A stretch of 64,000 nt of DNA from Escherichia coli (GTDB lineage Bacteria > Pseudomonadota > Gammaproteobacteria > Enterobacterales > Enterobacteriaceae), in the NCBI RefSeq assembly GCF_045037415.1, contig NZ_CP173438.1; one strand, 5' to 3'. Positions 54,001 through 63,000 of this stretch are shown here, piece after piece; within the stretch, counting starts at the first letter, position 1, and each line of letters begins with the position of its first letter. The position numbers were made by a program.

Positions 54001-57000
54001 CGCACTGGCTATGAGAAAGTTGCGTCAAAGCGATGGGGCGCGCCTCGCTGATACCGAACAAATTGAAGGCTACCAACAGAATCGAAATGGTTAACAAACA
54101 GGCACCTGCAAAATACCAGTAAGCGTCGTGACGATGGGTGACTGGCGCTAATGTTGGTGGTGAAGACTCGGTATCCTCACTGGATGTTGGTACGTCAACA
54201 TCAGGGATTATGGATGGCTCTATAATTGCAGGTGGCGCAGGGGCTTCATCCAGTGGTTCGATGGATACATTCGGGTTTAGCTGCAGATAGCCGCGTGCAA
54301 CGGTAATGATAATATTATCAATACCATAGTGACGGAACGTCTTGCGCAGCATACTGAGATACTGATTCAGATTGCTGTTAGAAGAAGTTAATCCGTTGTT
54401 ATCCCAAACTTTTGTCAGTACCTCTTCGCGACTAACGATATCGGTATGATGCAAAAAAAAGTTGAGCAGCGCGCAGGACGTTATCGAGAGTTGGCAGTCT
54501 GGCTCAGTGCTTTGCGGTAGCGTAAGCGTGCCATCCGTAGCGTCATAAATGAAACGGGCATTGATGTTATAGCGCATCGCGACCTCAATCCATGGGACTT
54601 CACGCGGGAAGTGTCATCTTATTCAGTGAATCAACCAGTGCCTGACGATGTTCGGGGCTCATGGTGATCCCTTCCGTTAACTCAGACAACCAGATGCCAT
54701 CTGCGGTATAGCGCACCAGCGTTCCGGTTGGGCTATTATCCAGTTCATCGCCATTCGCTAAATGACCAAGCATCCAGTCTCGCCAGCATTTTCGCAGCAC
54801 CGGTTCATCGGGCATTGCCAGCGAAAGCACCATCAATTGACGGCTTTCTTGTGTGTCAGTCAGCGCAGAAAGATAGTTCACATATGCGCGAGTAAAACGG
54901 CCATAGCTTATATTGTCTTTTTGCATCAGGGCAGCGATGGCCTCTTCCATTATTGCCAACAACCGGGCAAACAAGGCGTAGATCAGCGCCTGCTTGTTCG
55001 GAAAGTGATGCAGTAATCCACCTTTACTCACGCCAGCTTCGCGGGCAACCGCATTCAGCGAGAGGGCAGCGATACCGTCACGACCAGCAATCATAGCTGC
55101 AGACTCCAGCAACTGCTGATACAGACGGATGGGATCTTTTTTACGATGTTGGGTTTCTGTATTCATAGGCAGAAGCATACCGACCAGACGGTATGTTTTT
55201 TTTTGATCGCTATCAAGGAGAAGCAGCTACCCATGAAGTGAGTATGGGTATTGCGTGTGAGGTCACAATTTGTCGTATAAATCCTACTGCTGCTGTTAAT
55301 TCTCCTGGTCTGCACAATGGTGGGAATCTGTTACCCTTTCGATGAACAGAAAATCCATAAAAAGATGATCAAATAACTTTTAATGACCTGAATGATGCTT
55401 TTTGAAATACAGAAGGCAAGCGAGAATGAACCGCCCCGGGGTTCCTAGAGAGTGTTTTATCTGTGAACTCAGGCTGCCAGCTCATCATTTCCGATAGAAG
55501 CATAATACGCTTTTTCTGCTTCTGCCGGAGGAGTATGCCTCAGCCTTCCCAGCAATCGTCGATTGTTATACCAGTCCACCCACGTGAGTGTGGCCAGTTC
55601 CACTTCTGCACGGTTTTTCCAGCTCTTACGGTGTATTACCTCCGCTTTGTAAAGACCATTGATGCTCTCCGCCATCGCGCTGCCATACGAGTCGCCTGTA
55701 CTCCCTGTTGATGCCAGCAGTTTTGCTTCTTTTAATCGCTCCGTATAGGCCAGTGACACATACTGAGAGCCTTTATCGCTGTGATGGATGGTGCCGGACG
55801 GACGACGGGCCCACAACGCCTGCTCCAGCGCATCCAGCACGAATGTCGTTTCCATGGACGATGATACCCGCCACCCCACGATGTATCCGGCAAACACATC
55901 AATGATGAACGCCACATAGACGAAGCCCTGCCATGTGCTGACGTAAGTAAAATCAGCCACCCACAGCTGGTCAGGACGTTCTGCCACGCACTGACGGTTT
56001 ACGCGGTCACCTGCGGCAACGGTTTTCCGGCTGACGGTAGTGCGGACCTTTTTACCCCGGAGAACACCGGAAAGTCCCATAACCGCCATGAGGCGCGCCA
56101 CTGTACATCTGGCCACCCTGATTCCTTCCCGTAACAACTGACGCCAGACTTTACGCACACCGTACACCTGATGATTTTCATCGTATACGCGCTGTATCTC
56201 TCTCTTCAGCCAGTCATCGCGCTGTGCATGTGCACTGCGTTTATCAGGATGATGTCGCTGTTGCTGACAGTGGTAATACGTTGACGGGGCAATATGCAGT
56301 TCACTGCATACCGGTCTGACCCCGTACTGCTCACGCAGCTTATCCAGCAGTGCCATCACTTTTTCCAGAGGCGGTCGAACTCCGCCTTCGCAAAATAAGC
56401 GGAAGCCTGGCGAAGGATATTGTTACTGCGGCGCAGTTCACGATTTTCACGTTCCAGCTCTTTCAGACGCTGACGTTCAGCGGTGGTAAGCCCACCATCA
56501 CCGCCTCCGGTATCCCGCTCATACTGGCGAACCCAGACACGCAGAGTCTCCGGCGTACAGCTAGTCTTTGGAGCAATGGAACAAATTGCCGCCCATTGTG
56601 AGTCATATTCGCCCTGACTTTCCAGAACCATACGAACTGCCCGTTGACGGACTTCGGGGGAAAAACGTGTTTTTTTAGTCATCCTGTTTACCTCTTTCTC
56701 AGGAAGTTTAGTCTCCAGGATTTCCGGGGCGGTTCAACTCCGTTGCCTCATCAGTTGTGGTCTACAGCAACATCCACCATTAAACCGCCAACACAGACTG
56801 TTCCGCGTTAAACGAGTGCGGCGGTACTTTCAGCCCGGAAACCTGGGGAGCGCGCTCGCAGGCATCAGTCTGTTATTTGTTGAAGGGGTTATTTCCTGCT
56901 CTTGTGAATGGAGTTACCGAGATAATGATTGGGTCGAAAGACTCGGCACGCCCTTTTTTTTATGTAAATTCCATAGGCTTAAGCGATGTAAAACGTTTAC

Positions 57001-60000: not shown

Positions 60001-63000
60001 TTCAGGCCAGCGAACTTAAGACGGGGTTTATCTTTGGAATCGGAGGAGTCTTGAGATTCAGCAAGGTGGCCTTTGAATTCATGTTCCTACTGATCGAACC
60101 CAGTGCTGACGAGTCAGTACAGATTTTTATTGACGTTGATTGTCGGTAAGGATAGCCGTTGCAGTTAATCGTTCAGGTAAATGTTTATTCGACAAAGCAT
60201 TGAACTGCCCGTTGACGGACTTCGGGGGAAAAAAGTGTTTTTTTAGTCATCCTGTTTGCCTCTTTCTCAGGGAGTTTAGTCTCCAGGATTTCTGGAGCGG
60301 TTAACTTACAATTATCTGTTCACTAATGACTACTCTAAAAAGTTGTATCAATTTAAGTGATAGTCTTAATACTAGTTTTTAGACTAGTCATTGGAGAACA
60401 GATGATTGATGTCTTAGGACCGGAGAAACGCAGACGGCGTACTACACAGGAAAAGATCGCTATTGTTCAGCAGAGCTTTGAACCGGGAATGACGGTCTCC
60501 CTTGTTGCCCGGCAACATGATGTAGCAGCCAGTTACTTCTCTGGCGCAAGCAATACCAGGAGGGAAGTCTTACTGCGGTGACTGCTGGGGAACAGATCGT
60601 TCCTGCCTCTGAACTTGCTGCAGCCATAAGGCAGATTAAAGAACGCCAGCGCCTGCCCGGAACAAAACGATGGAAAATGAACTCATTAAAGAAGCCGTTG
60701 AATATGGACATGCAAAAAGTGGATAGCGCACGCTCCCTTATTGCCGGGGTGATGCACTGGGCGGTCACTACCGGCGGCTTCAACAGTGAAACAGTACAGG
60801 ACGTCATGCCAGGAGCGGTGGAACGCCGCTTCGGCAACGAGCTTCCGGCGTCTCCAGTGGAGTGGCTGACAGATAATGGTTCATGCTACCGGGCTAATGA
60901 AACACGCCAGTTCGCTCGGATGTTGGGACTTGAATCGAAGAACACGGCGGTGCGGAGTCCGGAGAGTAACAGAATAGCAGAGAGCTTCGTGAAAACGATA
61001 AAGCGTGACTACATCGTTTTCATGCCCAAGCCAGACCCTGTACACGATTCTGTGTGAAACAACGGGGAGCAGGTCATCGCTTCCCAACCCGTTATTTCAG
61101 CGTGCCGAACTGTTTGTCTTTCAGTGCATATAGTCGGCCGAACTCAGCATAGGGCTCTCCCGTTTCAGCCGCGTGCCGGGTTTTAGCATCCAGAAGGTCG
61201 GGTAAAGGGATCCTATGATTCAGTGAGTGGTAAAGATCATAACCACTGACACAGATAACCCGCTTCCCTTTACCAAAAGCCGTCAGGCCTTCAGGCGTAA
61301 ACCCCATCCAACTGATAAAAACACCGCGTGTCCAGGTTGCCTTGGTACTGAGCTTTCCTTCAAATACATGGAGGTCGGCAGCCGACGTTCTTTTCTGATG
61401 CCACTTTGCCTCCATCAGGTAAAATTCATCATTCAGTCGGAAACTTCCGTCAATCTGTTCGCCTGTATTTCGGAAAGACGAACGAGGAGCAAGCTTAAAG
61501 ATACTGAACAGTTCAGCAAGCCAGGCTTCAAACCGAAAACCACGTGGATGTGGCGGCAGAGATTTCATCTCGTTCATTTCAGCGATAAGTGAATGCCAGT
61601 CAACACCATGCCATGCCTGGACAGGCTTAACGCCTTTGGCTTCATCGGTGTCAGCGTTTTCTAAGCGGGAAATCAGTGCAAGATAGTCATTACGGCTTTG
61701 TTCAGCCTGTTCAGGCATGGATTCCGTTTTATACTGCCAGAGCGCACCAAGAACCCGCAGAGCGGTTCTCACGATCAACCTGTTTCAGCAAGCATCTAAC
61801 TCGTTTGGCTTTTGACGTCCCCTCTTTCTGATAACGTTCATCATCAATATCAATGTTCAATTCTTCATCGAAAAAAGCAGACAAGGTGCGGTTAGAGAAA
61901 TCCAGTATCCAGCCAGGATCGCTCTCGAACACAATATTAAACAGCCTCAAATCCTGCATTTTAAGTTTCACGCCTACCTCCTTTTTTCACAGTATAACGG
62001 GATGAAAGTGGGGGAGGAAATGAGTCAGAACCTGTACACCAGCATTAGGGGATTCCGCGTCTGGTACAAAGCAGACTATGAGAAGAGAGACGCTATAACA
62101 TTTGAGTCCTACCAATCGATCTGTTCATTTCTATGAATGGCAGTAAATGCAAATAACCAGAACAACCAAAGGTTTTTCGACTTATGTGTCACGAACGGAA
62201 GTAGATGGCAATCCATTGCATTACTTCAGGACGACTTTTCAGAAAGCGAGCTAAGGGCGTTGGCATAAACTCAGGCATCGGATGCTGTTTTACAGGGTTC
62301 ACCTGCCATCCAGTAGACGCCCCAGCCCACGACTGCAACCATAATTACGTTGCCCGGAACCGTCATGCTGCTTCGTCTCATATTTCACGAGATAACTGGC
62401 TCTGTTCCGGGCTTTCTGCATCGCTTCCACATCACCACGCTTGACCCAGAGCACAGCGGATCCACCCGGCTTTTTGTCTGAAGCCTTCCTGGTTTCAGAA
62501 CATCCACCCGACAAAGGCGTATCATCGGAAGAAGGGCGAGCATCAGATGATGTCGGTTTACGGAAAGGCGTCCGCCTGGAAAAATGAACCAGTCCATTAC
62601 CCTGCCAGGGCTCAAGATGCAGAGCACTACACCATGCCAGCTTGATCAGTGTCGCCAGCGAAGAAGGAACGGTGAAATCCCCTGGCGAGCACCAGGTATC
62701 TTTGTTGAGCAGTAATATCACGTGATAATGTTTCCTGCCTTTTTCCTTGCCAAACTCCCGGCACCAGAAATAACGCAGGCTGGTTGCATGCACACGCTGA
62801 TTGGCACATCTTTTTTTCCGCTGGTAAGCCTGAATTTTGGCTTTCAGGGATGCAAAAAAACGAGAAATCACCGCTGAATCCGGATCGGGATCCATGATGG
62901 TGACAGGCATATACTCAGGGAAACGTAAATCCACTCGGATTAACGAGACGGCACGGTGCTGCGCCAGGGCACTGTCGAGAAGGATGTCAAAACGGGATAA

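Follow-up and report, generated by a model that had tools for sequence, protein, structure and literature searches.

A PatB/MalY-type lyase and NhaC transporter operon of Citrobacter origin in an Escherichia coli island and its predicted link to the xylose regulon

The pyridoxal 5'-phosphate (PLP)-dependent enzymes PatB, MalY, cystalysin and Lcd release pyruvate, ammonia and a thiol or H2S in vitro. E. coli MalY also inhibits MalT, and it is encoded with the transporter gene malX in a sugar-regulon operon. RidA is an aminoacrylate/iminopyruvate deaminase that quenches the products of β-eliminating PLP enzymes, and MleN is a substrate transporter of the NhaC family. XylR operators consist of a pair of direct repeats, each ending in AAT, beside a weak -35 hexamer (PMC3561964). 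The window analysed here is a 64,000-nucleotide (nt) stretch of the E. coli contig NZ_CP173438.1 (assembly GCF_045037415.1), and the subject is a two-gene module near its right end, in which a gene for a PatB/MalY-family lyase is followed by one for an NhaC-family membrane transporter (here nhaC), next to a complete IS629-like insertion sequence (IS). In the reading preferred here, to which we give an overall probability of about 0.6, a single import of Citrobacter DNA was trimmed by IS elements, and what remains is a lyase-transporter operon driven by CRP and XylR.

The first gene (57156-58334, plus strand) encodes a PatB/MalY-family PLP-dependent β (C-S) lyase of 392 amino acids, which scores 370.7 bits against the TIGR04350 model (cut-off 340). 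Its alignment to solved PatB/MalY-type enzymes runs end to end, with matches to 4dgt of C. difficile (2e-78), B. subtilis PatB (6qp3, 1e-72), T. denticola cystalysin (1c7n, 5e-63) and E. coli MalY (1d2f, 4e-56). K230, in the motif SPAKTFN, aligns with the Schiff-base lysine of 4dgt and 6qp3, and 14 homologues, the most distant of them at 45% identity, all keep N167, D195, K230 and R361; the PLP lysine, on which the initial annotation had made its lyase assignment depend, is therefore present. The second gene (58327-59778, plus strand) overlaps the end of the first by 8 nt. Its product, of 483 amino acids, is a full-length member of the NhaC family (PF03553, 200 bits; TIGR00931, 598.1 bits against a cut-off of 370), and it also reaches 289 bits, below the cut-off, with the ArcD-type arginine/ornithine antiporter model. 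The pairing with a lyase suggests transport of a substrate rather than Na+/H+ antiport. A GC-rich, terminator-like hairpin (59822-59845, plus strand) stands between nhaC and a remnant of psiE.

Upstream of the lyase gene, a CRP-type palindrome, TGTGATAAACATCACA (57041-57056, plus strand), is the sole match to TGTGA-N6-TCACA in the 64 kb, where 0.08 would be expected. It is followed by a XylR-type operator (57065-57098, plus strand) made of two AAT-ending direct repeats 21 nt apart, TTTTCATAAT...AAAATACAGAATAAC, which agrees with the published description of XylR operators (PMC3561964). The same architecture is found, nearly base for base, 5' of the lyase gene in Citrobacter, K. oxytoca, Pluralibacter, Serratia, Proteus, Providencia and Zophobihabitans, and in a looser form in some Pasteurellaceae; the CRP palindrome is kept in Citrobacter, Klebsiella, Pluralibacter, Serratia, Proteus and Zophobihabitans. 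In Proteus and Serratia, this region faces a divergent xylR and is the sole promoter region available for lyase-nhaC-xylA-xylB. A position weight matrix of the operator, built from five xyl-embedded promoters only, gives 31.8 bits to the window site, which is the top of 127,934 positions (runner-up 17.1 bits); scores of 10 bits or more occur six times in that background. With the same matrix, the E. coli xylE promoter scores 19.4 bits, with a CRP-like site before the match, and xylF and xylA score 10.0 and 7.5 bits, each site oriented toward its gene. The latter two are the top two matches in the xylF-xylA intergenic region. A -35/-10 pair returned at 57046-57074 by a simple promoter scan lies inside the CRP and XylR sites and is not relied on here, since XylR promoters have weak hexamers.

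The chromosomal position of the pair in Citrobacter bears on the same question. The slot between malG and psiE is filled by xylE in K-12 and by lyase-nhaC in Citrobacter, in the same orientation. In the K-12 locus, the malG-xylE intergenic region (13660-14030 of the extracted sequence L099) has the CRP-like site and then the 19.4-bit operator match. The malG terminator is common to K-12 and Citrobacter, and the two diverge after it into xylE or lyase-nhaC.

Gene neighbourhoods of relatives were surveyed with one genome per species and with exact-protein look-ups, giving about 60 informative loci in which open reading frames were clustered and key clusters checked by Pfam. In essentially every complete locus of at least 41% identity, nhaC lies directly 3' of the lyase gene. 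This adjacency, often with overlapping stop and start codons, extends over Enterobacterales, Pasteurellaceae, Paenibacillus, Anaerococcus and Tessaracoccus. Among the gammaproteobacterial species loci, the pair has xylR and/or xylAB as neighbours in 25 of about 27, and the gene orders number at least five. Orthologues linked to xyl genes occur in Proteus, Providencia, Serratia, Orbaceae, Zophobihabitans, 'Enterobacteriaceae B14', at least 14 species of Pasteurellaceae and a metagenome-assembled genome (MAG) of Anaerococcus. Eight Proteus species and S. marcescens have xylR next to lyase-nhaC-xylA-xylB, and Providencia and one MAG have xylR next to the lyase gene, after which the contig ends. 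Zophobihabitans has xylR-xylB-xylA next to lyase-nhaC, and 'Enterobacteriaceae bacterium B14' has xylR-xylHGF next to lyase-nhaC-xylAB. In most Pasteurellaceae, xylBA is next to lyase-nhaC-xylFGH-xylR; in Pasteurella atlantica, Aggregatibacter and Mesocricetibacter it is next to xylFGH-lyase-nhaC(-xylR). Histophilus somni has lyase-nhaC-xylR alone, with no xylA or xylB within 8 kb, and the Anaerococcus MAG, of 32% GC, has lyase-nhaC-xylA-xylB. In Proteus, genes for a PF01212 β-eliminating-lyase/threonine-aldolase-like protein and an Hsp70-like protein recur 3' of xylB on the opposite strand. Collectively, the CRP palindrome and the XylR-type operator, the orthologues within xyl operons and the occupation of the xylE slot in Citrobacter make it probable that the pair is regulated by xylose, and dependence of the window operon on both CRP and XylR is predicted with good confidence.

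In Paenibacillus, a gene for a YheO-like regulator with PAS and HTH_22 domains precedes the pair, and a RidA gene follows it directly in 15 of the 19 loci where lyase and nhaC are still adjacent. This linkage to RidA supports real β-elimination chemistry for the lyase family. The lyase and nhaC genes of the window are thus pictured as a translationally coupled operon that would be switched on by D-xylose in the absence of glucose, via CRP and XylR. The NhaC-family protein would import an amino-acid-type substrate, and the PatB-family enzyme would carry out a PLP-dependent elimination at its β-carbon, yielding a leaving group and aminoacrylate, the latter turning into pyruvate and ammonia. We infer these three steps, xylose/cAMP-CRP induction, import by NhaC and β-elimination by the lyase, from sequence and gene context. 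As to the substrate, the xylose linkage points to a xylose-bearing amino acid, and the family name to cysteine, cystathionine or S-conjugates.

The second of these hints corresponds to the initial annotation, which proposed uptake and cleavage of a sulfur-containing amino acid or conjugate. In its full form, a plain sulfur-amino-acid module would take up cystine, cystathionine, lanthionine or S-alkyl-cysteines, the lyase would release pyruvate, ammonia and a thiol or H2S, and the xylose link would be a regulatory convenience. The lyase falls within TIGR04350, its nearest solved relatives are C-S lyases (PatB, cysteine-S-conjugate β-lyases, cystalysin, FnaPatB1 and MalY), and the RidA linkage of Paenibacillus fits any β-elimination. 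However, such a module leaves unexplained why, across two phyla and at least five gene orders, the pair comes first in operons with xylAB or xylFGH, and why CRP and XylR sites are present instead of control of the CysB, CymR or MetJ type; in addition, no sulfur-metabolism genes recur among the neighbours of the surveyed lyase-nhaC loci. The sulfur reading, which took its substrate from the family name alone, is possible but rather unlikely, as the promoter and the orthologue neighbourhoods point to the xylose regulon.

Within the preferred reading of a xylose-induced lyase-transporter operon, a more specific and quite doubtful proposal may be made, namely that the pair is an undescribed way into xylose catabolism. 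NhaC might import a xylose-bearing amino acid, most plausibly O-β-D-xylosyl-L-serine, from which the lyase would free D-xylose together with pyruvate and ammonia; the D-xylose would then induce XylR and feed XylA and XylB. Of the substrates considered, such a conjugate would account best for the xylose linkage. O-β-D-xylosyl-L-serine is the stub of the glycosaminoglycan-protein linkage region and has been reported in human urine. If this proposal were true, the lyase-nhaC-xylA-xylB operons of Proteus, Serratia and Anaerococcus would be a complete pathway. It would also explain the xylose operons of host-restricted Pasteurellaceae and the retention of the pair in uropathogenic E. coli despite trimming by IS elements. 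A literature search returned nothing on the lyase-nhaC gene pair or on a bacterial xylosyl-serine lyase.

The DNA that carries the operon differs in composition from its surroundings and matches Citrobacter. GC content is 0.428 over 56949-59988 and 0.405 in the lyase gene, compared with 0.53-0.56 in the IS and 0.455 in the whole window, which bears out the initial description of an AT-rich two-gene module between IS ends. The stretch from 56949/56955 to 59988 has 94.2% nucleotide identity to C. europaeus and 91.1% to C. freundii, and the lyase protein 96.2% and 93.6%, respectively. In both species the locus reads malG-lyase-nhaC-psiE and is IS-free. The Citrobacter loci came from the plasmid collection PLSDB and from exact-protein look-ups; the scan of species representatives gave none. 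The PLSDB record NZ_CP151862.1, entered as 'C. freundii plasmid unnamed2' with 425 kb and as non-mobilizable, has the mal regulon and dnaB, ssb, uvrA, lexA, pgi, lysC and plsB, and it looks like part of a chromosome that was deposited as a plasmid.

Both ends of this DNA are broken genes. At the left, 56737-56941 (minus strand) is a Citrobacter-type dnaB remnant, consisting of about the first 56 codons (56737-56904) and 37-39 nt upstream of dnaB, and it adjoins the left inverted repeat (IRL) of the IS. The stretch 56772-56941 is 90% identical to a C. freundii locus (L096, 11954-12124), where it covers the first 132 nt of dnaB and 39 nt upstream on the minus strand, and in six-frame translation the DnaB N-terminus continues to the IS junction. 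The remnant carries a frameshift and a stop codon, and RefSeq marks it as a pseudogene. At the right, 59853-59989 (minus strand) is a frameshifted 3' fragment of psiE, found by tblastn with C. freundii PsiE, which corresponds to residues ~89-136 (about 48 C-terminal codons) and is likewise a RefSeq pseudogene; homology to C. freundii and C. europaeus stops at 59988. In between, at ~56942-56955, lies an internal deletion junction: the dnaB-side homology stops at 56941, and homology to the malG-lyase spacer begins at 56949-56955. The DNA deleted relative to C. freundii amounts to 18,829 bp and runs from qor through lexA to malK-lamB-malM and malEFG. The alignments make it well supported that 56737-59989 is a block of a C. 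freundii-complex chromosome, from dnaB codon 56 to psiE codon ~89, with its middle deleted.

Across the module region the window is 100% identical to UTI89 and many other extraintestinal E. coli. Among 5426 E. coli genomes searched, 385 carry the module, every copy at ≥99% identity, in 345 chromosomal places and 41 plasmid ones, and this uniformity argues for a single acquisition by E. coli. The junction between the IS and the dnaB remnant is found in 354 of these 385 genomes, the junction between the module and a short IS629-like fragment at its right in 280, and the whole of 54000-62000 in 225. The single diverged E. coli match, of 80-90% identity, was considered as a native copy of the module and rejected because it is the resident psiE gene alone. 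On IncF plasmids, 55419/55824-59985 is present at 99.1-99.2% identity and is followed by 21 unrelated nt and ISEc38. The junction of IS and module is common to the chromosomal and IncF-plasmid lineages, and in both the Citrobacter DNA ends in psiE within the same 4 nt; the short IS629-like fragment is absent from the IncF-plasmid lineage.

The complete IS at the left (55427-56736, minus strand) has its right inverted repeat (IRR) at 55427 and its IRL at 56736, where the initial annotation had placed its end. It is 1310 bp long, with terminal inverted repeats of 25 nt that are 84% complementary (TGAACCGCCCC...). It contains orfA (56356-56682, minus strand; Pfam HTH_Tnp_1), orfB (55469-56359, minus strand; HTH_21, rve and rve_3) and, at 56285-56401 (minus strand), the ALIL pseudoknot that signals programmed -1 frameshifting (Rfam RF01497, 117.6 bits against a gathering score of 50). 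By this structure it is assigned to the IS629/IS1203 group of the IS3 family, and RefSeq labels the UTI89 copy 'IS3 family transposase, programmed frameshift'. Annotated IS1203/IS629 copies of E. coli are 94-98% identical to it over the parts compared; the variant beside the module is peculiar to it and is essentially not found elsewhere. It has no target-site duplication, its flanks being GAA (55424-55426) and ACT (56737-56739). Another IS3-family fragment of the window, at 41184-41611, has the opposite orientation and 84% identity to nt 1-431 of the IS629-like element.

At the right, a second, diverged IS629-like copy is represented at 60202-60302 (minus strand) by its last 101 nt, the IRL end, cut internally at 60202; the initial annotation had reported this fragment to within 6 nt, with the same end and orientation. 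As it forms a direct repeat with the last 101 nt of the full copy (56634-56734; 95% identity, five mismatches and one nt missing from the terminal TTCA), it is the IRL end in the orientation of the full copy. It is no chance match, being a recognizable IS end with a blastn E value of ~1e-41 within the window. Between the psiE remnant and this fragment lies a third piece, 59990-60201 (plus strand), which holds the left ~212 bp of a degenerate, ISEc20-like element of the IS110 family. Its 60091-60201 part is 74-79% identical to the first ~118 nt of transposase genes of the ISEc20/ISSfl4 type, the match beginning at the start codon, and weak gapped IS110-like similarity extends upstream to 59991, which suggests that the left end of the element is at ~59991. 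The ~212-bp stretches that flank the Citrobacter DNA had been considered as one repeated element; they form no repeat and are the dnaB remnant and the IS110-like end.

Outside the fragment, resident island DNA begins with a CP4-44-like yoeA/IS2 junction (60306-60400, 99% identical to K-12) and continues with a frameshifted IS2 remnant (60354-61036), the whole spanning 60306-61036 on the plus strand. The two pieces of the yoeA/IS2 stretch are ~270 bp nearer each other than in K-12. The order rightward is thus the psiE remnant, the IS110-like ~212 bp, the 101-nt IS629-like end and, from 60306, CP4-44-like DNA. With an IS110-like remnant on its inner side and K-12-like CP4-44 DNA on its outer side, the 101-nt fragment is read as the end of an IS that was resident in the E. 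coli island and that a deletion has joined to the IS110-like remnant; it does not border the captured DNA directly.

Together, these results support the following history of the unit well. A larger Citrobacter block would have been imported once and then cut down by IS-associated adjacent deletions or recombination and by one deletion free of IS. The IS629/IS1203-like element adjoins the dnaB stump on the left, and an IS110-family element the psiE stump on the right. Trimming of this kind, rather than transposon insertion, is favoured since no target-site duplication was found at either the IS629-like/dnaB or the IS110-like/psiE junction. The reduced operon, which kept its own promoter, would later have moved between the chromosomal island and IncF plasmids. 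In the chromosomal form, that of the UTI89-type island beside the cutC cluster, a further deletion would have fused the IS110-like remnant to the last 101 nt of the resident IS629-like copy, and in the IncF-plasmid form ISEc38 follows the psiE stump.

Two IS629-like copies in direct orientation might instead have moved lyase-nhaC as a composite transposon, the right copy having since decayed to 101 nt. The two ends do share their orientation, the same three nt (ACT) follow both IRL ends, a coincidence with a chance of 1/64, and the IS is found together with the module in 354 genomes and on plasmids. However, only one copy is complete and the other is 101 nt long and 5% diverged; ~212 bp of an IS110-family remnant separate it from the captured DNA, and its outer flank is resident K-12-like DNA. 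The plasmid lineage lacks the fragment, so that the right boundary differs between chromosomal and IncF forms, and neither the unit nor the full IS has a target-site duplication. Moreover, the left IS adjoins codon 56 of dnaB, and since this gene is essential, a simple insertion there in the donor chromosome would not have been viable. Such a transposon is therefore improbable. What had been proposed as IS-mediated capture stands in so far as foreign DNA is tied to an IS, by a junction present in 354 of the 385 genomes and in both lineages; enclosure between two IS629-like ends does not hold, as the IS110-like remnant intervenes and the right fragment lies outside the captured DNA, adjoins resident DNA and is absent from the plasmids. 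The module was not found at this site without IS elements in related strains, and the IS-free pair is that between malG and psiE of Citrobacter.

Two further readings concern the function of the gene products. NhaC might be a genuine Na+/H+ antiporter with no functional relation to the lyase, the pair being a chance hitch-hiker kept by linkage. This is in keeping with the 598 bits scored against the NhaC equivalog model of NCBIfam, but it is very unlikely in view of the lyase-NhaC adjacency conserved from Enterobacterales to Pasteurellaceae, Paenibacillus, Anaerococcus and Tessaracoccus, and of the substrate transporters that the NhaC family includes, such as those of the ArcD-type model that the protein matches below cut-off. 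Least probable of all is that the lyase acts chiefly by binding to XylR or another regulator and thereby adjusts the xylose regulon, its enzyme activity being secondary, for which the precedent of MalY, a detectable homologue (1d2f, 4e-56), and the lyase-nhaC-xylR locus of H. somni without xylAB nearby might speak, but catalytic residues strictly conserved across phyla, the 8-nt overlap and universal pairing with a transporter, and the RidA linkage of Paenibacillus all favour a substrate-processing pair with real turnover.

Several points weigh against the preferred reading of a trimmed Citrobacter import under CRP and XylR control. E. coli, Citrobacter, K. oxytoca and Pluralibacter have the pair by itself and not near xylAB, and no recurrent xylose link was seen beside the Paenibacillus pairs (Pfam families of the neighbours: GH36, GH94, MCP and DcuC-like). 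The matrix for the operator derives from five promoters, of which three are nearly identical and all are related by descent to the window promoter; as it is small and trained on homologues, the independent regulatory support comes from synteny and from the xylE, xylF and xylA matches, and two of these three matches (xylF, 10.0 bits; xylA, 7.5 bits) are modest. The literature search gave no expression or XylR-binding data for the lyase-nhaC operon. As to the history, no donor above 94% nucleotide identity was found. IS100, IS1A, ISKpn26 or ISEc52 interrupt nhaC of the module or its surroundings in several E. coli lineages. Selection for the pair is thus not universal, and the operon is decaying in part of the E. 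coli population.

The closest relatives of the pair of E. coli and Citrobacter, in K. oxytoca (72%), Pluralibacter (65%) and a metagenome contig (72%), are all stand-alone pairs. On the metagenome scaffold (L091, 9871-12822), the 72% lyase-nhaC pair is followed by transposase genes of the Tn3, IS3 (78.6% to the window IS) and IS110 families, so that the pair appears to be associated with mobile elements in another host too.

The island around the module has further contents. Upstream, at about 44737-52721 (coordinates of the cluster taken by offset to the UTI89 annotation), are cutD, cutC, genes for a PduQ-like dehydrogenase, EutN and an acetaldehyde dehydrogenase, and three bacterial microcompartment shell genes. 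This choline trimethylamine-lyase cluster is followed by genes for a FidL-like protein (53241-53759), a winged helix-turn-helix protein (53759-54577) and a TetR protein (54600-55178). To the right of the module are genes on the minus strand for a restriction endonuclease of the Mrr_cat type (61092-61970) and for a YagK/YfjJ protein of the 'inovirus Gp2 family' (62299-63030), and farther on in UTI89 there are CP4-57-like genes (antirestriction, YeeU/CbtA).

Foreign DNA bounded by IS elements in an island of extraintestinal pathogenic E. coli (ExPEC) is ordinary, and the genes were already annotated. The origin and reduction history of the unit and the conserved link to the xylose regulon are added here, and that link appears undescribed; a literature search found no published explanation for it. 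The unit is a clean and datable case of a chromosomal import from Citrobacter into E. coli that was reduced by IS elements to one operon and then came to be carried on IncF plasmids. The pair itself, annotated for two decades as 'MalY/PatB' and 'Na+/H+ antiporter', would belong to the xylose regulon, as a conserved part of it, in several animal-associated bacterial families. If the substrate is a host-derived xylose conjugate, urinary and mucosal pathogens would have a nutrient source not recognized before, and the enzyme family a new reaction; if it is something else, xylose induction would still offer an inexpensive and direct experimental handle on the lyase and nhaC genes.

Compared with known mobile units, the locus shares foreign metabolic genes between IS elements with composite transposons of the Tn5/Tn10 type and with the IS-bounded 'metabolic islands' of ExPEC, as well as a setting in a mosaic island that IncF plasmids carry too. 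Unlike Tn5 or Tn10, it has one complete IS, a diverged second end of 101 nt and no duplications, and its boundaries are truncated donor genes, dnaB and psiE, which fits deletional trimming. Its IS has the 1310 bp, the 25-nt inverted repeats, the orfA/orfB organization with the ALIL pseudoknot and the rve DDE domain of the IS629/IS1203/IS3411 group, whereas it lacks a target-site duplication and is 94-98% identical to the other E. coli copies compared.

Among enzymes, the lyase shares with the PatB/MalY/cystalysin group full-length homology, a score above the TIGR04350 cut-off and the PLP lysine with its Asn, Asp and Arg partners; none of PatB, 4dgt, cystalysin and MalY has been reported in a xylose operon or paired with NhaC, whereas the window promoter is of the CRP and XylR type. 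The Paenibacillus clusters, in which a yheO-like regulator gene, lyase, nhaC and ridA follow one another, contain the same lyase-NhaC pair at 43-48% identity, but theirs have the YheO-like PAS/HTH_22 regulator and no xyl genes nearby. With E. coli malX-malY the operon shares a PatB/MalY-family lyase whose gene accompanies one for a membrane transporter under sugar-regulon control. MalX, however, is an EIICB of the phosphotransferase system and control is by MalI, while the window operon has an NhaC protein and control of the predicted XylR type; the known role of MalY is inhibition of MalT, and no evidence of such a role was found for the window lyase. The xylA, xylF and xylE promoters of E. 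coli share with the window promoter a CRP site, then two AAT-ending repeats spaced by 21 nt, and a weak -35 downstream of these. In contrast to those members of the XylR regulon, the genes governed here code for a lyase and an NhaC transporter rather than for xylose transport or catabolism, and their control by XylR is a prediction from the sequence.

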